Positions 13,755 through 20,327 of a stretch of DNA of 64,000 bases are shown one piece after another. The first letter of the stretch is position 1. Every line of letters starts with the position of its first letter. This DNA comes from an uncultured Solirubrobacterales bacterium (GTDB lineage: Bacteria > Actinomycetota > Thermoleophilia > Solirubrobacterales > 70-9): NCBI GenBank assembly GCA_963717495.1, contig OY970339.1, positions 2,551,798 through 2,615,797 of the forward strand, read 5' to 3'. The translations under genes and the position numbers were made by a program. The notes beneath the pieces are model-generated. The model did not search any database and was not told the DNA's origin. It saw only the letters and a list, made by a program, of their open reading frames with translations.

Positions 13755-14513
13755 TTAGCCGACCCCGACCGCCAGCTCCTCGCTGGCCGCCTCGTGACCC
13801 TCGAAAGGCAGCACCAGGAAATACATCATCGACGGCAACAGGGAATCGAGATCGTCGAGTTCACCTTTGCAGAGCCGCGAGTAGAGAAGGGCTTCCACTC
13901 CGCCGACGATTCCCGCCGCGGTGATCGCCGAGTAGGAGGGGGCGTCGGGACAGAGCTCGCGAACCTGCGCGTCGATGCAGGCGCCGAAGTGGTCGAGCAG
14001 CTCGTCGCGACGCTGCACGGCGTCGGGGCTGGCGGCGCGCGCCTCGACGACGAGGGTGCGGGCGGCGTCGGGTTCGCTGGAGGCGAAGTGAAGGAGGGTT
14101 TCCAGACCGAAACGGAGTCGGTCCCGGAGGTTGTCGCCTCCCTTACCGGCGGCGGTGGCCATGCGCTCGCGCAGGCGGGTGGCGGTGACGTCGAAGGCTG
14201 TCAGGAAGCAGTCTTCCTTGTTGGCGAAGTGCTCGTAGAAGGTTGGGCGGGAGACGCCGGCGCGTTCGATCACGTTCTGGACGTTGGCATCCCGGTAGCC
14301 GAGTTCGGAGGCGGCCCGCAGCATCGCCGCGATCAGTCGCTCCCGTTGCACGGCGCTGACCAGGTCGGAGGGAAGCTTGCGAACACCGGACGGGAACTTG
14401 CCGTCGCTGGCGCGCAGCAGCTCGAGGGCGGCGTCGACCTGGGCCGGCGGCCAGTTGTCGCCGATGGCGTCGAGCAACTTTTCCTGACTCAGTTGAATCC
14501 GATCGAATGGCAC
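13755..14513 (-). CDS. TetR family transcriptional regulator (paralog 1)
   Basis: HTH 'ELGYRDANVQNVIERAGVSRPTFYEHFANKEDCFLTAF'. Confidence 0.9.
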   Translation of the reverse strand: MPFDRIQLSQEKLLDAIGDNWPPAQVDAALELLRASDGKFPSGVRKLPSDLVSAVQRERLIAAMLRAASELGYRDANVQNVIERAGVSRPTFYEHFANKEDCFLTAFDVTATRLRERMATAAGKGGDNLRDRLRFGLETLLHFASSEPDAARTLVVEARAASPDAVQRRDELLDHFGACIDAQVRELCPDAPSYSAITAAGIVGGVEALLYSRLCKGELDDLDSLLPSMMYFLVLPFEGHEAASEELAVGVG

Positions 14514-14619
14514 CGAGAAACCTGCCCGTTTCTAATAAGAACGATACGAGTTTCCTTACGGTACCAGAAGAGTCGCTGGCTGGCGGTCACTTTTGTAGCA
14601 CGCCGGTATTCTCTAACCG

Positions 14620-15282
14620 ATGCCATCCCCATCGGCGAGGGGCACGCAGACGAAGCCGGCGCGAGTAAAACCTACCCGGCCACTGCTGCCCAGAGAGTTC
14701 GTCGCGGTGCATAAGCGCCGTCGTGTCATGGATGCGATCGCCGAGCTCAGCGCCGAGCAGGGCTATGAGGCTACATCGATCGCGGACATCGTCCGTCGTG
14801 CCGGCATCGCCCGCAAAACTCTGTATGACAACTTCGAGGGCAAGGAAGAGGTTTTCCTGACGGCGCTCGATGGTGGGATAGAAGAGGCGCTGAGTAGAGC
14901 CGAAGCGGCCTGCGACGCCGCCGGCAACGACTGGCGCGAACGGATCGAGGCCGGCCTCGGCGCCCTTCTCACCTACATCGCCGAGCAGCCGGCCTATGCA
15001 CGGATGTGCATGATCGAGTCGCTCTCGGCGACACCGGCCTCGTCCGCCCGCTACGACCACGCGATCCAGCAGTTCATCGAGCTGCTGCGCCTCAATGCCC
15101 CTTCGGGCAGCGGCCGGCCGGACACGACAGAGGAGACGGTGGTGGGCGGAGCGGCCTGGATCATCAATCAGAAGATCCGTCGCGGCGAAGCCGAGCAGGC
15201 GCTGGATCTATTACCCGAACTCTCCGAGTTCGTCCTCTCTCCGTACCACGGTGTAGAGAATTCAGATTCGGGTACGAGCTGA
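14620..15282 (+). CDS. TetR family transcriptional regulator (paralog 2)
   Basis: HTH 'EQGYEATSIADIVRRAGIARKTLYDNFEGKEEVFLTAL'. The C-terminus is similar to the two neighbours. The start is uncertain. Confidence 0.85.
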   Translation: MPSPSARGTQTKPARVKPTRPLLPREFVAVHKRRRVMDAIAELSAEQGYEATSIADIVRRAGIARKTLYDNFEGKEEVFLTALDGGIEEALSRAEAACDAAGNDWRERIEAGLGALLTYIAEQPAYARMCMIESLSATPASSARYDHAIQQFIELLRLNAPSGSGRPDTTEETVVGGAAWIINQKIRRGEAEQALDLLPELSEFVLSPYHGVENSDSGTS

Positions 15283-15318
15283 CGAAACTGACAGTACGGT
15301 GGCAGACTCCATTCTCAG

Positions 15319-15963
15319 ATGGAGCGCCTTCCCCGCGGACGCCACGGTCTTTCCCCCGAGTTTGTCGCACGAAATCAGCGCGAAAGGCTGATCGCCGGGC
15401 TGACCGAAGTCCTCTACGAGGTGGGTTATCAGAAGACCACTGTGTCGCTGATTGGTCAGCGAGCAGCCGTCTCGAAGAGTGACTTCTACAAGCATTTCGA
15501 GAGTAAGGATGACTGTTTCTTCGCCGCCTACGAAGCGGCGATCGAGCAAATTCGCGAGCAGGTGACCACGGCCTGCTCGCAGCACGATCCGGAGGAATGG
15601 TCGTCGCGGGTGCGGGACGGCATCGCCTCCCTCCTCACCTTTCTTGCCGGCGACCCCGCCCTGGCCAGCCTCTCGCTGGTCGAGGGCCTGCGCGCCGGCC
15701 GCGGCGTCTACGACCGCTACCAGGCAGCGGTCGAGAGCTTCGTGCCTTACCTCCGCGGCGGCGCCCCGACCGCGCCGGACGGCGACGCGGTGCCGGCGGC
15801 GACCGACGAGGCGGTGGTCGGCGGCATCGCCTCGCTACTGGGGCGACGCATCCTCGCCGGCGAGGCGGAGCGGATCGACCAGCTGCTCCCCGACGTGCTC
15901 GAGTTCGCGCTGACGCCTTACCTGGGCGCCGCCCAGGCAAGGCGAATAATCTCTGCGGGATGA
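15319..15963 (+). CDS. TetR family transcriptional regulator (paralog 3)
   Basis: N-terminal 'LPRGRHGLSPEFVARNQRERL' and HTH 'EVGYQKTTVSLIGQRAAVSKSDFYKHFESKDDCFFAAY'. Its stop overlaps the next start (ATGA). Confidence 0.9.
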   Translation: MERLPRGRHGLSPEFVARNQRERLIAGLTEVLYEVGYQKTTVSLIGQRAAVSKSDFYKHFESKDDCFFAAYEAAIEQIREQVTTACSQHDPEEWSSRVRDGIASLLTFLAGDPALASLSLVEGLRAGRGVYDRYQAAVESFVPYLRGGAPTAPDGDAVPAATDEAVVGGIASLLGRRILAGEAERIDQLLPDVLEFALTPYLGAAQARRIISAG

Positions 15964-17135
15964 GCGAGCCGACCCCGGGCGTCTTCCCATCGCAGGAGCT
16001 GAACCGGGCGATCGAGGCGGAGTGGGTCAGCTCCGGCGACTACCGCATCCGTCCTGAGGCAATTCAGCCGGCCAGCATCGACCTCCGCCTCGGCGATTTC
16101 GCCTGGGCCCTGCGCTGCTCCTTCCTGCCGGACGTCGACTCCAGCGTCGAGGAGAAGATCGAGGGGATCGCCTTCCAAAAGGTCGATCTGCGCGACGGTG
16201 CCGTGCTCGAGCGCGACCGGCCCTACCTGGTGCCGCTGATCGAGGAGCTGGCGCTGCCCGAGGACGTGCGGGCCAAGGCCAACCCGAAGAGCTCGACCGG
16301 CCGCCTCGACGTCTTCACCCGCGTCATCACCGACCGGCATCACCGCTTCGACGACATCCGCGCCGGCTATCGCGGCCGGCTCTACCTGGAGATCGTCCCG
16401 CGCTCCTTCGCGATCCAGGTCAAGACCGGCCTCTCGCTCAACCAGCTGCGGCTCTCGCGCGGCGCCGTCCGCCTCGGCGACGCCGAGATCCTCGACCTCC
16501 AAGACTCCTCGCCGCTGCTCTTCCTGGACGCCGAGCCGGTGCCGCGCTCGGACCTGGCGATCTCCGACGGCCTCTTTCTCAGTCTCGACCTCTCCGGCCC
16601 CGCCGACCGCACCGTCGGCTACCGGGCGAAGAAGAACAGCCTGCCGGTCGACCTTTCGCGTGTCCGCGCCTACCGCTGGAGCGACTTCTGGGACCCGGTC
16701 TACCCCGAGCCCGGCGGTCGGGTGGTGCTGGAGCCGGAGATCTTCTATCTATTGCTCTCCGCCGAGGGGGTTTGCATCCCGCCCCGGATCGCCGCCGAGA
16801 TGATGGCCTACGACCCGACCGCGGGCGAGCTGCGCACCCACTACGCCGGCTTCTTCGATCCCGGCTTCGGCTACGACCCCCAGGGCGGCCGCCACGGCAG
16901 CCGCGCCGCGCTGGAGGTGCGCGCCCGCGACGTCTCCTTCATGGTCGAGCACCGCCAGCCGGTCTGCAAGCTCGGCCTCGAGCGCATGGCCGCCCCGGCC
17001 GAGCGCCTCTACGGGGCCAGTCTCGGCTCCAATTACCAAGGCCAGGTGACCATGCTCAGTAAACACTTCGAGGAGCAGATGGCGGGAGGAGGAGGGGGCA
17101 CCCCCTCCGAAACGCTCGGCGGGAGCCTCGCTTGA
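15960..17135 (+). CDS. 2'-deoxycytidine 5'-triphosphate deaminase-like protein (long, two-domain DCD family)
   Basis: Internal ATG at 15960 of track ORF 15597..17135; the upstream part is Arg/Pro-rich read-through of the TetR gene in another frame. 391 aa with 'QPASIDLRLG', 'NPKSSTGRLDVF' and 'HYAGFFDPGFG' (dUTPase-fold/DCD-like motifs). Confidence 0.8.
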   Translation: MSEPTPGVFPSQELNRAIEAEWVSSGDYRIRPEAIQPASIDLRLGDFAWALRCSFLPDVDSSVEEKIEGIAFQKVDLRDGAVLERDRPYLVPLIEELALPEDVRAKANPKSSTGRLDVFTRVITDRHHRFDDIRAGYRGRLYLEIVPRSFAIQVKTGLSLNQLRLSRGAVRLGDAEILDLQDSSPLLFLDAEPVPRSDLAISDGLFLSLDLSGPADRTVGYRAKKNSLPVDLSRVRAYRWSDFWDPVYPEPGGRVVLEPEIFYLLLSAEGVCIPPRIAAEMMAYDPTAGELRTHYAGFFDPGFGYDPQGGRHGSRAALEVRARDVSFMVEHRQPVCKLGLERMAAPAERLYGASLGSNYQGQVTMLSKHFEEQMAGGGGGTPSETLGGSLA

Positions 17136-17626
17136 GTGTTTCGGAGGGGGCGCCCGCCCCCACTCCTCGAACCTGGCTGGTGTATCTGGCTGGGGAGATT
17201 CACTCGGATTGGCGGGAGCGGATCGAAGTGGGGGTGCGGGAGGCTGGCCTGCCGGTCTCCTTCTCGGCTCCGGTCACCGACCACGCCGCCTCCGACGACG
17301 CCGGCACCGGCACCCTGGGCGAGGAGCTTGACCCATTCTGGCGTGACCACAAGGGCGCCGGGGTCAACGCGATCCGTACCCAGACCCATATCCGCGAGGC
17401 CGACCTCGTCGTCGTCCGCTTCGGCGACAAGTACCGGCAGTGGAACGCGGCCTTCGACGCGGGCTTCGCGGCCGCCCTCGGCAAGCCGATCGTCACCGTC
17501 CACGACCCCGATCTGGACCACGCCCTGAAGGAGGTCGACCGTGCCGCCCAAGCGACGGCGCGCGAGTCCGAGCAGGTGGTCGACGTCCTGCGCTACGTCA
17601 TCCGCGGCGAGCTGCCCATCGCCTAG
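17132..17626 (+). CDS. YtoQ family protein (nucleoside 2-deoxyribosyltransferase-like fold)
   Basis: TTGA overlap with the DCD-like stop. 164 aa with 'WLVYLAGEIHSDWRE', 'DHKGAGVNAIRT', 'DLVVVRFGDKYRQWNAAFDAGFAAALGKPIV' and 'ALKEVD', typical of YtoQ. Confidence 0.75.
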   Translation: MSVSEGAPAPTPRTWLVYLAGEIHSDWRERIEVGVREAGLPVSFSAPVTDHAASDDAGTGTLGEELDPFWRDHKGAGVNAIRTQTHIREADLVVVRFGDKYRQWNAAFDAGFAAALGKPIVTVHDPDLDHALKEVDRAAQATARESEQVVDVLRYVIRGELPIA

Positions 17627-17642
17627 GGCATAGGGTGGGCGC

Positions 17643-18131
17643 ATGCCCGCCGACGCAAACCGCGCCACGATCGAGCGCCTCTACGAGGCGTTCGGCCAGT
17701 GCAACGGCGCCGCGATGACCGCCTGCTACGCCCCCGGTGCCCACTTCCGCGACCCCGCCTTCGGTGACCTCGAGGGCGACGACGTCGGCGCGATGTGGCG
17801 GATGCTGACCGGCCGCGCCACCGATCTGAAGATCGAGCTGCACGAGCACGAGGCGGGGGAGGAGACCGGCTCGGCCCACTGGATCGCCCGCTACACCTTC
17901 TCCACCGGCCGCCCCGTCGTCAACGACATCCAGGCCAGCTTCCGCTTCGCCGCCGACGGCAGGATCGCTGACCACATAGACGACTTCGACTTTCGCGCCT
18001 GGGCCAAGCAGGCTCTTGGCCCAGGCGGCCACCTGGTCGCCCTGCTGCCGCCCCTGCGCCGCAAAGCTCGCGCCAAAGCCCTCGAGCAGCTCGAGGCCTT
18101 CAAGCGCGACGAGACCGGCTCCAGCATCTGA
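17643..18131 (+). CDS. SnoaL-like / NTF2-fold protein
   Basis: 162 aa starting 'NRATIERLYEAFGQCNGAAMTACYAPGAHFRDPAFG', an NTF2-like signature. It starts 16 nt after ytoQ. Confidence 0.75.
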   Translation: MPADANRATIERLYEAFGQCNGAAMTACYAPGAHFRDPAFGDLEGDDVGAMWRMLTGRATDLKIELHEHEAGEETGSAHWIARYTFSTGRPVVNDIQASFRFAADGRIADHIDDFDFRAWAKQALGPGGHLVALLPPLRRKARAKALEQLEAFKRDETGSSI

Positions 18132-18211
18132 GCGCATCTGCAGATTGAGCGATTGATGCCCCTCCAGGGGTGTCGAGCGCTCAACCTTGCCGCCGTTCGG
18201 TATGCGAACGT

Positions 18212-19273
18212 ATGTTCGTGCGCTGGGACGAACAGCGAGTCGAGAACGACCTGCGGTTGCCGGGAGTCGGCGACGGCACGGTCACCCGCACCTTCGACGC
18301 CCCCGAGGCGATGGGGGTCAACTTCCACGAGGTCCGGGCCCGCTCGGCGCTGAATCACGTGCCCGGCGGTCGCTACGGGTTCAGCTACACGGTCAACCAG
18401 TACAGGGGATGCACTCATGCCTGTGTTTTCTGTTTTGCTCGAAAAACTCACACCTACCTAGATTTCAACGCCGGTCGCGACTTCGAGCGGGAGATCGTGG
18501 TCAAGGTCAACGTGCCGGAGCTGCTGCGGGCGGAGCTGGCGCGGCCGAGCTGGAAGCGGGAGCTGGTGGCGCTGGGGACCAACACCGACCCCTACCAGTG
18601 GGTCGAGAGCCGCTACCGGATGATGCCGGAGATCCTCGAGGCGCTGGAGGCGGCGGAAACCCCCGTCTCGGTCCTGACCAAGTCGCCGCTGGCGATGCGC
18701 GACGTAAAGATCTTCGAGCGGATGGCGAAGAAGCTGCCGGTCTCGGTCAACCTCTCGGTGCCGACCCTGGACGAGGACGCCTGGCGGGCGACCGAGCCGC
18801 ACACGCCGAGCCCAGCCGCCCGCCTCGACGCGGTCGCCGAGCTGCGCCGCCGCGGCATCGACTCCGGCGTTCTCATCGCGCCGCTGATGCCCGGCATCAA
18901 CGACTCCCCCGACCAGGTCCGCCCGATCGTCGAACGGGCGAAAAAGGCAGGCGCCACGTTCCTGGGAGGCGTGGCTCTGCATCTGCGAGGAGAGGTGAAG
19001 GATGTTTTTTTCGCTTGGCTAGAGGAAAAACGCCCCGACCTCCTCCCTCGCTACGAGGCCCTCTACAACGATCGCGCCTACCTGCAGCCCGCCCAGCGAA
19101 AGCAGGCCACGAGAGCCGTCCCCGGCTGGGGCCGCACCCGCCTCCGCAAATCCCTAGCCGACCGCTCCGAGCCTGTCTCAGCTCACGCAGCCCAATCCGG
19201 CGCCGGGCCTTCGCCACCATGGCCTGCTCCTGCCTCTGCTCTCGAAGACCCACCCCAGCGCGCCCTCTTCTAA
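18212..19273 (+). CDS. Radical SAM protein, SplB/Rv2578c-like (DNA-repair-photolyase-type)
   Basis: CxxxCxxC cluster 'YRGCTHACVFCFARKT'. 353 aa from the internal ATG 18212 (track ORF starts at 18170). Confidence 0.8.
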   Translation: MFVRWDEQRVENDLRLPGVGDGTVTRTFDAPEAMGVNFHEVRARSALNHVPGGRYGFSYTVNQYRGCTHACVFCFARKTHTYLDFNAGRDFEREIVVKVNVPELLRAELARPSWKRELVALGTNTDPYQWVESRYRMMPEILEALEAAETPVSVLTKSPLAMRDVKIFERMAKKLPVSVNLSVPTLDEDAWRATEPHTPSPAARLDAVAELRRRGIDSGVLIAPLMPGINDSPDQVRPIVERAKKAGATFLGGVALHLRGEVKDVFFAWLEEKRPDLLPRYEALYNDRAYLQPAQRKQATRAVPGWGRTRLRKSLADRSEPVSAHAAQSGAGPSPPWPAPASALEDPPQRALF

Positions 19274-19376: not shown

Positions 19377-20327
19377 CTAAGTGCCTTCGTCGAGCTGCTC
19401 GAACTTGCACTCCGCCGGCTCTTTGTCATCCCGAAATCGATGGAACCGAGCTCCATGCCTGATCCGTCCCGACGCCGCATGGTCGTACCCGACCTCGATC
19501 ACCAGCTCCGGCCGCAGCTCCACCCACTCGAGGTCGCGCCCACCCGTCCACCGGCTCGGCTCCGCGCTGCCGCTCTCGCCCGTCTCCAGCGGCGCCAGCA
19601 TCGTCCGCATGCTCCGTTTCGCCGCCGCCGAGAAGCCGGAGATGTGGCCGACCGAGCGCAGCTCGCCGTCGTCGTAGAGGCCGAGGATCAGCGAGCCGAC
19701 GGTGCCCTCCTCTTTGCCCGGCCGCCAGCCCATCACCACGCAGTCGATCGTCCGCTCGCGCTTCACCTTCGCCATGCCTTTGCGCTTGCCGGGTATATAG
19801 GGCGCGTCGAGCCGCTTCGCCATCACGCCCTCGATGCTGGCCAGCCAGCGTTCGGCCTGGGCGGCATCGGGGGTCAGCGGCGTCAGCTCCAGCCCGGCCG
19901 CCGGGGCGATCGCCTCCAGCCGCGCCCGTCGCTCCGACAGCGGCGCCTCCAGCAGCGACTCGTCGCCCTCGGCCAGGAGGTCGAAGACGATGAGGCCGGC
20001 CGGGATCTCCTTGGCGAGCAGATCGATCCGCGACTGGGCGGGGTGGATGCGTTCCTGCAGCGAGTCGAATTCGAGGTTGCCGTCGGCGTCGCGGATGACC
20101 AGCTCGCCGTCCAGCACCCAGCGCCCCGGCGCGAAGCTCAGCTCCGGGAAGTAGCGAGCCAGCTCTTTGCCGCCGCGCGACTGGATGTACGCCTCGTCGC
20201 CGTCGACGAAGACGATCGCCCGGAACCCATCAAGCTTCGGCTCATAAGCCCACCCCTCGCCCTCCGGCAGCGCTTTACGGGTCAGCGCCAACTGCGGCTT
20301 GATCGGTGGCGACAAAGGTAAACCCAT
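19377..20327 (-). CDS. ATP-dependent DNA ligase (stand-alone LigC/LigD-ligase-domain type)
   Basis: 316 aa with the adenylation motif 'EPKLDGFRAIVF' (KxDG) and an OB-domain C-terminus. Confidence 0.9.
   Translation of the reverse strand: MGLPLSPPIKPQLALTRKALPEGEGWAYEPKLDGFRAIVFVDGDEAYIQSRGGKELARYFPELSFAPGRWVLDGELVIRDADGNLEFDSLQERIHPAQSRIDLLAKEIPAGLIVFDLLAEGDESLLEAPLSERRARLEAIAPAAGLELTPLTPDAAQAERWLASIEGVMAKRLDAPYIPGKRKGMAKVKRERTIDCVVMGWRPGKEEGTVGSLILGLYDDGELRSVGHISGFSAAAKRSMRTMLAPLETGESGSAEPSRWTGGRDLEWVELRPELVIEVGYDHAASGRIRHGARFHRFRDDKEPAECKFEQLDEGT

Follow-up and report, generated by a model that had tools for sequence, protein, structure and literature searches.

A long-form dCTP deaminase gene coupled to a local TetR regulator, with YtoQ and SnoaL-like genes as optional neighbours, in a genus of Solirubrobacterales

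Four genes packed on one strand of an uncultured Solirubrobacterales genome encode a TetR regulator (TetR3), a dCTP deaminase-like protein of 391 aa (DCD), a YtoQ-family protein and a SnoaL_2-like protein. Their packing raises the question of whether they form one ligand-controlled nucleotide pathway, as the original prediction proposed, or whether an ordinary housekeeping gene stands here under a local regulator, followed by genes that it does not require. We investigated the locus in the window, by which we mean the whole 64,000-nt stretch of DNA that was analysed, and in related and more distant genomes. The features of the locus, with the neighbouring genes as context, are the following.

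13755..14513, - strand: TetR1, a divergent TetR paralogue (context; PF00440, 8.1e-11)
14620..15282, + strand: TetR2, a TetR paralogue kept in near relatives (context; PF00440, 6.2e-14)
15281..15310, + strand: candidate promoter/operator block CGAAACTGACAGTACGGTGGCAGACTCCA, ~30 nt, near-invariant in relatives
15319..15963, + strand: TetR3 regulator (TetR_N, 1.4e-11)
15960..17135, + strand: DCD, a long-form tandem-domain protein annotated as 2'-deoxycytidine 5'-triphosphate deaminase, 391 aa (PF06559 and PF22569, NF005734)
17085..17166, no strand assigned: palindromic hairpin element at the 3' end of DCD (-58.3 kcal/mol, z -4.6)
17132..17626, + strand: YtoQ-family protein with a nucleoside 2-deoxyribosyltransferase-like fold, 164 aa from TTG (PF11071, TIGR03646)
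17643..18131, + strand: SnoaL_2-like protein, 162 aa (PF12680, 1.6e-16)
18170..19273, + strand: radical SAM protein, closest to the SplB-like families Rv2578c/PA0069 (context, outside the unit; PF04055, 5.8e-16)
19377..20327, - strand: stand-alone ATP-dependent DNA ligase of the LigC type (context, convergent; NF006078, 375.2 bits, cut-off 296)

The coordinates and open reading frames agreed with the predicted packing of the four genes. The TGA of TetR3 (15961-15963) overlaps the ATG of DCD at 15960, giving ATGA at 15960-15963; the TGA of DCD (17133-17135) overlaps the TTG at 17132, giving TTGA; and a gap of 16 nt (17627-17642) separates the YtoQ gene from the SnoaL-like gene. Domain models also bore out the identities that had been proposed for the TetR, DCD, YtoQ, SnoaL-like, SplB-like radical SAM and ATP-dependent ligase genes. 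TetR3 matched PF00440, the N-terminal helix-turn-helix, at 44.4 bits (cut-off 24), and no equivalog model reached its cut-off for this protein. The best model for the radical SAM protein was Rv2578c (NF038135), at 371.5 bits and under its cut-off of 430, and the SnoaL_2-like protein, whose presence varies among near relatives, had no NCBIfam match. Most near relatives also have TetR1 ahead of the block. The GC content was 0.65-0.70 over the locus and about 0.58-0.75 for the whole window.

We examined the family to which DCD belongs. DCD matched DCD_N (PF06559; 9.2e-63, 211.4 bits, cut-off 21.4), DCD_C (PF22569; 2.3e-65, 220 bits, cut-off 22) and, over its full length, the NF005734 equivalog (441.7 bits, cut-off 283). 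PF22769 matched each half of the protein, indicating a tandem Dcd fold, and residues 30-371 aligned with the solved Agrobacterium tumefaciens structure 2R9Q (E 3.9e-94), so that the proposed double-size protein with a tandem dUTPase-like fold was confirmed. It is not a canonical short Dcd, a single-domain protein of ~190 aa: the short-form model TIGR02274 gave 66.8 bits against a cut-off of 92.8, and DCD has 391 aa and two domains. Family-invariant positions were defined from an alignment of 38 diverse long-form members, and all 18 of them are present in DCD (S39, D41, K110, S111, S112, G114, R115, Q162, R292, H294, A296-G302 and E319), with the motif KSSxGR in the N half and the motif R-x-H-x-AGFxDPG and a Glu in the C half. 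The conserved motifs suggest that each DCD chain would carry one composite catalytic set, made up of the N-half KSSxGR, the C-half HYAGFFDPGF and the invariant Glu. By sequence, the 391-aa DCD belongs to the long-form dCTP deaminase family (PRK07559/NF005734) as one of its ordinary members.

A plain homologue search with DCD returned near relatives only (84-93% identity), and it was replaced by a representative search and an alignment-seeded locus scan. The representative search found the long-form family in about 713 clusters (50% identity, E <= 1e-30), and its range covers Alphaproteobacteria, Nitrospirota, Acidobacteriota and Actinomycetota. The family is thus widespread and has a solved structure, yet the literature library that was searched contained no biochemical work on a long-form protein. 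The enzymology is as poorly defined as had been stated, and because no such study was found, the name dCTP deaminase is to be read as an annotation of the long form.

The gene content of the window's genome (G000; uncultured Solirubrobacterales, 2.72 Mb, 94% complete) was searched for other enzymes of the route to dUMP and dTMP. The only Dcd-fold matches in this genome were the two halves of the long DCD and Dut. Neither a short Dcd nor a dCMP deaminase was found in it, and since the genome is 94% complete, one of these could still have been missed; its PF00383 deaminases are TadA and RibD only. ThyX and Dut are present, and ThyA was not found in the same genome. The long form occurred in 34 of 36 genomes of the genus, and a short Dcd (E ~1e-10) was detected in all 24 genomes that were sampled from the order's five other families. 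Among 401 Actinomycetota genomes, 14 contained the long form, each with a single match, and none showed both forms. Because each form replaces the other across genomes, we infer the same cellular role for the two, and the replacement pattern predicts that they are equal in function.

In the tree of long DCD proteins, Pseudomonadota, Actinomycetota and Nitrospirota each fell on one side of a branch (support 98-100), and in other lineages the gene stands beside unrelated core genes specific to each lineage (IHF/HU, FabH, ApaG, ScpB and a Cys/Met PLP enzyme). The tree follows the phyla, and on these comparisons the long DCD is vertically inherited and behaves as a core gene. Its activity being judged from gene content, DCD is most likely the housekeeping dCTP deaminase of the cell in this genus. 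From dCTP it would make dUTP, or dUMP directly; Dut would then produce dUMP and ThyX would produce dTMP. Gene content and the short/long replacement pattern therefore favour a plain housekeeping enzyme, the outcome that the original prediction had itself named as speaking against its proposal.

A different or wider activity of the long DCD is unlikely. On this reading, the protein would combine deaminase and dUTPase activities, as the enzymes of M. jannaschii and M. tuberculosis do, or would act on another cytosine nucleotide, and the TetR control would reflect a special role. The closest solved short form is indeed the bifunctional M. tuberculosis enzyme (2QXX), and a single composite active site kept per tandem chain, in a family for which the literature search found no biochemistry, would leave room for such an activity; but DCD has intact copies of the catalytic motifs that it shares with characterised Dcd enzymes, the genome still encodes a separate Dut, and the mutual exclusion of long and short forms across genomes points to a shared cellular role.

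We investigated the regulator and the DNA upstream of it. Among 76 loci from near relatives, 70 have TetR3 upstream of DCD on the same strand, the two genes overlapping by 4 nt at 56, and no TetR3 was seen beside a long DCD in the loci sampled outside this clade. The block CGAAACTGACAGTACGGTGGCAGACTCCA (15281-15310) ends 9 nt ahead of the TetR3 ATG and is near-invariant in 30 of 30 relatives, the remaining spacer being variable. It occurs once in the window when up to 3 mismatches are allowed, and it may serve tetR3-dcd as promoter or operator. No motif common to the TetR1/TetR2 and TetR2/TetR3 spacers was found, the block ahead of TetR3 being single-copy, and a promoter/terminator consensus scan returned nothing useful in this high-GC DNA. 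As delimited by sequence conservation, the conserved unit is TetR3-DCD together with the upstream block and the 3' palindromic hairpin. The proposed dedication of a TetR regulator to the operon thus holds for TetR3 and DCD within the genus, and it does not hold where strict coupling was extended to YtoQ. In this genus only, dcd appears to have come under local TetR3 control, with translational coupling through the ATGA overlap. A TetR regulator coupled translationally to a core enzyme of the dNTP pool is unusual, an observation that we counted against a housekeeping reading.

The identity of YtoQ was clear from the family models. It matched PF11071 (1.4e-62; model positions 1-140 of 140), TIGR03646 (209.5 bits, cut-off 155.35) and, over nearly its full length, the structure 8OF6, named YtoQ (E 1.6e-33). 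That TetR3, DCD, YtoQ and the SnoaL-like protein form one ligand-controlled pathway of deoxynucleotide or nucleoside modification or salvage, with DCD and YtoQ acting in sequence, is quite unlikely. In an example of such a pathway, a dU nucleotide made by DCD would be processed by YtoQ as an Rcl/DNPH1-like N-glycosidase or transferase. Nucleotide-binding folds in both proteins and the one-strand packing of the genes with overlaps agree with this model, but YtoQ did not reach the cut-offs for true deoxyribosyltransferases (PF05014, 19.9 bits against 28.8; PF15891, 23 against 30). Rcl/DNPH1 has its catalytic Glu in a YELG-type motif; YtoQ aligned weakly with DNPH1 (E 0.28), and the YELG site reads FDAG, with Asp for Glu. 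The published ytoQ phenotypes also speak against the model, being thiol stress and vitamin B6 suppression and not nucleotides, as does the control genome of B. subtilis, in which YtoQ is present and a Dcd was not found.

The distribution of YtoQ bears on the pathway model more directly than its fold. YtoQ was present in 34 of 61 genomes of the genus (13 of the 22 high-quality ones), and it was not found in the other 27, which mostly keep DCD. Two complete genomes (G007 and G015) contained DCD, with YtoQ not found, and in another (G029) YtoQ is split, a pseudogene. At 70 assessable species-level loci, YtoQ directly followed DCD in 29, often with overlapping stop and start codons, which favours a joint pathway; against it, inserted DNA parted the two genes in 17 loci (a convergent MerR-MFS cassette at the locus checked, L028), and no YtoQ lay within 5 kb of DCD in 24. 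Where the genes adjoin, they are tightly coupled, the junction being GTGA, TGATG or the TTGA of the hairpin. Outside the genus, neither co-occurrence nor adjacency was seen: the window's genome was the only one of the 401 Actinomycetota genomes with both DCD and YtoQ, the loci with YtoQ among 80 diverse long-DCD loci were those of Solirubrobacterales only, and DCD was not seen beside YtoQ at six other YtoQ loci.

These results indicate that the DCD-YtoQ link, as far as genome comparison defines it, is a local and often-lost arrangement of one genus. The strict coupling that had been proposed for the two genes is contradicted by the genomes that lack YtoQ or hold it apart from DCD, and the adjacency that was to be sought in other genomes was not kept in those sampled outside the genus, a result that the original prediction had set down as refuting it. 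With the link confined to one genus, the claim of a ligand-controlled nucleotide-modifying pathway is left unsupported. YtoQ and the SnoaL-like protein are passengers that lie downstream in the same syntenic region and can be dispensed with, and DCD does not require YtoQ as a partner.

We examined the junction between DCD and YtoQ in the window and its relatives. The hairpin there has arms of 33 nt and carries the DCD stop codon, a GGGAG Shine-Dalgarno-like motif and the in-frame TTG of YtoQ, with the TTGA overlap sitting in its loop; the element encodes the last ~18 residues of DCD and the first ~16 residues of YtoQ. Its core is kept in relatives, and its arms contain compensatory changes. 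It was found at the 3' end of DCD in 26 sequences (the window and 25 relatives), 11 of which have no YtoQ after it, and a second copy lies in the intergenic spacer ahead of hrcA. In all 14 hairpin-to-YtoQ junctions (the window and 13 relatives), the TTG is in frame with YtoQ although the arm lengths differ, which argues for selection for co-expression of YtoQ and DCD in those species and is a further point on the side of a joint pathway. A GTG at 17180 was considered as the YtoQ start and was rejected, since this codon reads GTT or GTC in several relatives, in which the TTG frame is kept. Co-transcription or translational coupling of the genes is probable in the window's genome, and YtoQ would probably be produced there by read-through, starting at the TTG of the hairpin. 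A small palindrome at a gene boundary can thus provide the stop of one gene together with a ribosome-binding motif and the start codon of the next, and operon overlaps of this kind can arise from inserted repeats and not necessarily from an old operon design.

A regulatory scheme built on the same elements is very doubtful. TetR3 would respond to a pyrimidine (deoxy)nucleotide, or to some related metabolite, and would gate transcription of the sole dCTP deaminase gene; YtoQ, where it is kept, would act as an N-glycosidase-type cleaner of by-products, and the hairpin would set the YtoQ:DCD ratio. If this were true, gating by TetR3 would amount to ligand-dependent transcriptional control of the dTTP supply.

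That the cassette is a nucleotide-depleting anti-phage system, with DCD destroying dCTP upon infection, is extremely unlikely, since an analogy of activity with defensive dCTP deaminases and a repressor that could in principle silence a toxic enzyme are set against the lack of a PADLOC match for any of the six locus proteins, the different fold of the known defensive enzyme, the standing of DCD as the sole Dcd of the genome and its presence in nearly all genomes of the genus, a tree that follows the phyla, neighbours (TetRs, YtoQ, SnoaL, the radical SAM protein and the ligase) that include no adjoining defence or mobile genes, and a locus GC content that lies within the range of the window. 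The defence analogy of the original prediction failed on the fold and on the PADLOC search. Recent horizontal acquisition of the locus, or its being a defence island, was ruled out by composition, phylogeny and PADLOC.

Taken as a whole, the locus probably represents an ordinary long-form housekeeping dCTP deaminase under a local TetR3, with YtoQ and the SnoaL-like protein as dispensable passengers. If this reading holds, one more lineage is added in which dUMP is reached through a long DCD in place of a short Dcd, and little else changes.

The long DCD shares with the canonical homotrimeric Dcd (E. coli Dcd and the M. tuberculosis Dcd:dut, 2QXX) the beta-barrel fold, the motifs KSSxGR and AGFxDPGF and the catalytic Glu, and it differs from canonical Dcd in being about twice as long and in consisting of two fused halves that are complementarily degenerate. 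Compared with the long-form family elsewhere, only this Solirubrobacterales genus has a gene coupled translationally to an upstream TetR and ended by a palindromic element, which adds a Gly-rich tail of ~18 residues. YtoQ of this locus and YtoQ of B. subtilis belong to the same family (TIGR03646, PF11071, 8OF6), above both cut-offs, but the B. subtilis gene is monocistronic, belongs to the Spx regulon and adjoins ytpPQR, whereas the gene studied here sits behind DCD. The defensive dCTP deaminase is a protein of 576 aa with a zinc-dependent cytidine-deaminase domain and an N-terminal kinase domain, and it is found in defence islands (Tal et al., bioRxiv 10.1101/2021.04.26.441389). In contrast to this architecture, the Pfam matches of the long DCD are Dcd-fold domains only. 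The two enzymes have only the nominal substrate dCTP in common, and the long DCD, which has no PADLOC match, is set apart from the defensive enzyme by its Dcd/dUTPase fold and its core-gene behaviour.

The genome that contains the window (G000) is a single contig of 2.72 Mb. Open reading frames and coordinates were re-derived, and the four-gene layout of the original prediction was recovered exactly, with an ATGA at 15960-15963 joining the TetR3 TGA to the DCD ATG, a TTGA at 17132-17135 in which the DCD TGA overlaps a TTG, and a 16-nt gap between YtoQ and the SnoaL_2 gene. The features of the locus are as follows.

13755-14513, minus strand: TetR1, a TetR paralogue upstream of TetR3
14620-15282, plus strand: TetR2, a TetR paralogue upstream of TetR3
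15319-15963, plus strand: TetR3 (TetR_N)
15960-17135, plus strand: DCD, long-form dCTP deaminase of 391 aa (DCD_N and DCD_C; NF005734)
17132-17626, plus strand: YtoQ (TIGR03646)
17643-18131, plus strand: SnoaL_2 protein (SnoaL_2)
downstream of the SnoaL_2 gene: radical SAM protein, nearest to the Rv2578c family
downstream, convergent: LigC-type ATP ligase

The family assignments of TetR3, DCD, YtoQ and the SnoaL_2 protein were unambiguous, with DCD scoring 441.7 bits against NF005734 (cut-off 283) and YtoQ 209.5 bits against TIGR03646 (cut-off 155.35). The radical SAM protein reached 371.5 bits, below the Rv2578c family cut-off of 430. The three TetR paralogues stand in a row (13755-15963) with pairwise identities of 30-37%, and this array is kept across the genus.

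The conserved unit of the locus is TetR3-DCD. In 70 of 76 loci TetR3 lies upstream of DCD in the same orientation, and 56 show the 4-nt overlap. No TetR was found beside the gene in L127, L155 and L174, the Solirubrobacteraceae loci that form the closest outgroups with a long DCD, indicating that the coupling arose in this genus. A block of ~30 nt (15281-15310), which occurs once in the window and ends 9 nt before the TetR3 ATG, was almost invariant in 30/30 relatives, while the remaining spacer varied. It includes a TANNNT-type hexamer (TACGGT) and may serve as a promoter or operator.

DCD itself is a typical representative of an established family, which comprised ~713 clusters at 50% identity in a representative search (E <= 1e-30). 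It matched 2R9Q from A. tumefaciens, named '2'-deoxycytidine 5'-triphosphate deaminase', at E 3.9e-94; a literature search on the long form found no paper. Alignment of 38 diverse long-form members placed the invariant positions in both halves of the protein, and the window DCD has all of them: K-S-S-x-G-R (K110-R115), S39, D41 and Q162 in the N half, and R292, H294, A296-G302 (AGFFDPG) and E319 in the C half. The N-half Glu (E144) was conserved in only 31 of the 38. When aligned with HMMER to 2QXX, the short enzyme of M. tuberculosis, each half retained residues that are missing from the other. The long DCD is thus a duplicated Dcd fold with complementary degeneration, so that each chain has a single composite catalytic set; we presume the catalytic role of the invariant residues from the E. 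coli and M. tuberculosis Dcd enzymes.

The short and long Dcd forms substitute for one another. Among the relatives drawn, the long form was present in 34 of 36 genus genomes (E ~1e-63); in its place, all 24 genomes sampled across the order's five other families had a ~200-aa Dcd (E ~1e-10). Among 401 Actinomycetota genomes, 14 carried the long form, with one match each, and ~185 others the short form alone. A tree built from 99 long DCDs separated Pseudomonadota, Actinomycetota and Nitrospirota, each by a branch with support of 98-100, and tracked families inside Alphaproteobacteria. The neighbours of the long DCD outside the clade are lineage-specific core genes. In Alphaproteobacteria, a Cys/Met PLP enzyme and ApaG were each common to 13-17 of the loci; Rhodobacterales have IHF/HU, FabH and ScpB, and Nitrospirota have a lysine-aminomutase-like gene. 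Together, the replacement pattern, the phylum-following tree and these neighbours indicate that the long DCD behaves as a core metabolic gene, not as a mobile or defence gene.

The only Dcd-fold matches in G000 were the two halves of DCD and a 143-aa Dut, and the only PF00383 zinc-deaminase matches were TadA (2289-2759) and RibD. DCD is therefore the only step visible in the genome that would turn cytosine into uracil in deoxynucleotides. ThyX is present, and a search of the genome, which is 94% complete, did not find ThyA; the pathway would run from DCD through Dut to ThyX. With the caveat of that completeness, the set of genes present suggests that DCD has a housekeeping role. Outside the window (G000:C1:2387493-2388758, minus strand), two ThyX domain matches (PF02511) share a single open frame of 557 aa, and this ThyX may therefore be tandem-domain.

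DCD and YtoQ are linked only locally, and the link is unstable. YtoQ was found in only 7 of the 401 Actinomycetota genomes, all Thermoleophilia, and in none of the 13 other long-DCD genomes of that sample; the six other YtoQ genomes had a short Dcd, on other contigs or far off. Nor did these loci have a neighbour in common with the window. When 80 diverse long-DCD loci were inspected with 6 kb on either side, homologues of YtoQ and TetR occurred only in Solirubrobacterales loci of the window's clade, and B. subtilis, the search control, had YtoQ and no detected Dcd family. Strict coupling, as originally proposed, was not borne out: adjacency is not kept outside the genus, and within it YtoQ was detected in 34 of 61 genomes (13 of the 22 of high quality) and was absent from two complete genomes with DCD (G007 and G015). 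Among 70 assessable species-level loci, YtoQ lay directly 3' of DCD in 29, at 0.5-2.4 kb in 17, and was not found within 5 kb in 24. SnoaL was as variable among near relatives. We consider it probable that DCD is a long-form dCTP deaminase with a housekeeping role, which this genus has brought under a local TetR, and that YtoQ and SnoaL are optional genes carried along downstream. The chief alternative, a true functional link between DCD and YtoQ confined to this genus, would fit the 29 adjacent loci and is improbable given the losses and separations.

In the one separated locus examined (L028, 6167-8124), a convergent MerR and MFS transporter cassette lies between DCD and YtoQ, which has its own start beyond it. 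A same-size gap of ~2 kb was seen in L029, L035, L037, L045 and others. In G029 (G029:C1:867310-867730), YtoQ is broken into two overlapping frame fragments and is probably a pseudogene; sequencing error is possible because the assembly is only 56% complete. In two sister genera (L105, 6957-8318; L110, 1040-2401), a 453-aa gene divergent from the adjoining YtoQ resembles, by eye, a TrpB2-type tryptophan synthase beta chain.

The DCD/YtoQ junction contains a hairpin (17085-17166; -58.3 kcal/mol, z -4.6) with the core CCGAAACGC.CG.C.GGAG.C.CGCTTGAGTGTTTCGG. The window and 25 relatives, 26 sequences in all, have this core at the 3' end of DCD, and their arms vary yet remain complementary. Eleven of the 26 lack a following YtoQ, and their DCD stop comes a few codons earlier, so the hairpin is primarily a 3'-end structure of the tetR3-dcd unit, possibly a terminator or RNA-stabiliser. 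YtoQ follows directly in 14, window included; every one of these keeps the loop TTG in the YtoQ reading frame although arm lengths are unequal, and the TGA of the loop TTGA is the DCD stop in 13. The element there provides the stop, a Shine-Dalgarno-like motif and the TTG start. In relatives without the hairpin, the junction is GTGA, TGATG or a short gap, and YtoQ begins with its native M-x-E-R-x-W. The TTGA overlap is therefore real and the product of a small palindromic repeat, which has taken the place of the native YtoQ start. The element is low-copy and palindromic; its loop core (AAACGCTCGGCGGGAGCCTCGCTTGAGTGTTT) is fixed, and its G/C-rich arms are variable and self-complementary. Locus L074 has two nested copies. 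A second core copy in G000 (C1:1184998-1185035; ~1480-1560 of L206, minus strand) lies in the non-coding spacer between a MaoC-like gene and hrcA.

YtoQ scored below the cut-offs of true deoxyribosyltransferase families, and a weak alignment placed an Asp at the position of the catalytic Glu of DNPH1. A YtoQ structure exists (8OF6), for which a literature search found no paper. In B. subtilis, ytoQ belongs to the Spx (disulfide stress) regulon, and YtoQ overexpression aids a non-native vitamin B6 route.

The suggested DNA/nucleotide theme extending to the radical SAM gene and ligase had no tie to DCD beyond synteny in one genus; these two genes remain together in relatives with or without YtoQ and SnoaL. 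The GC content of the locus (0.65-0.70) compares with ~0.58-0.75 across the window. Overall, the proposal of a nucleotide-modifying or defence pathway with strict coupling is unsupported, since adjacency is not conserved and a housekeeping DCD is favoured. An anti-phage role is opposed by the core-gene behaviour of DCD, by the lack of any match between PADLOC models and the six locus proteins, and by fold: the defensive dCTP deaminase consists of a zinc-dependent deaminase domain and a kinase domain (Tal et al., bioRxiv 10.1101/2021.04.26.441389), a fold different from the Dcd fold of the window DCD.
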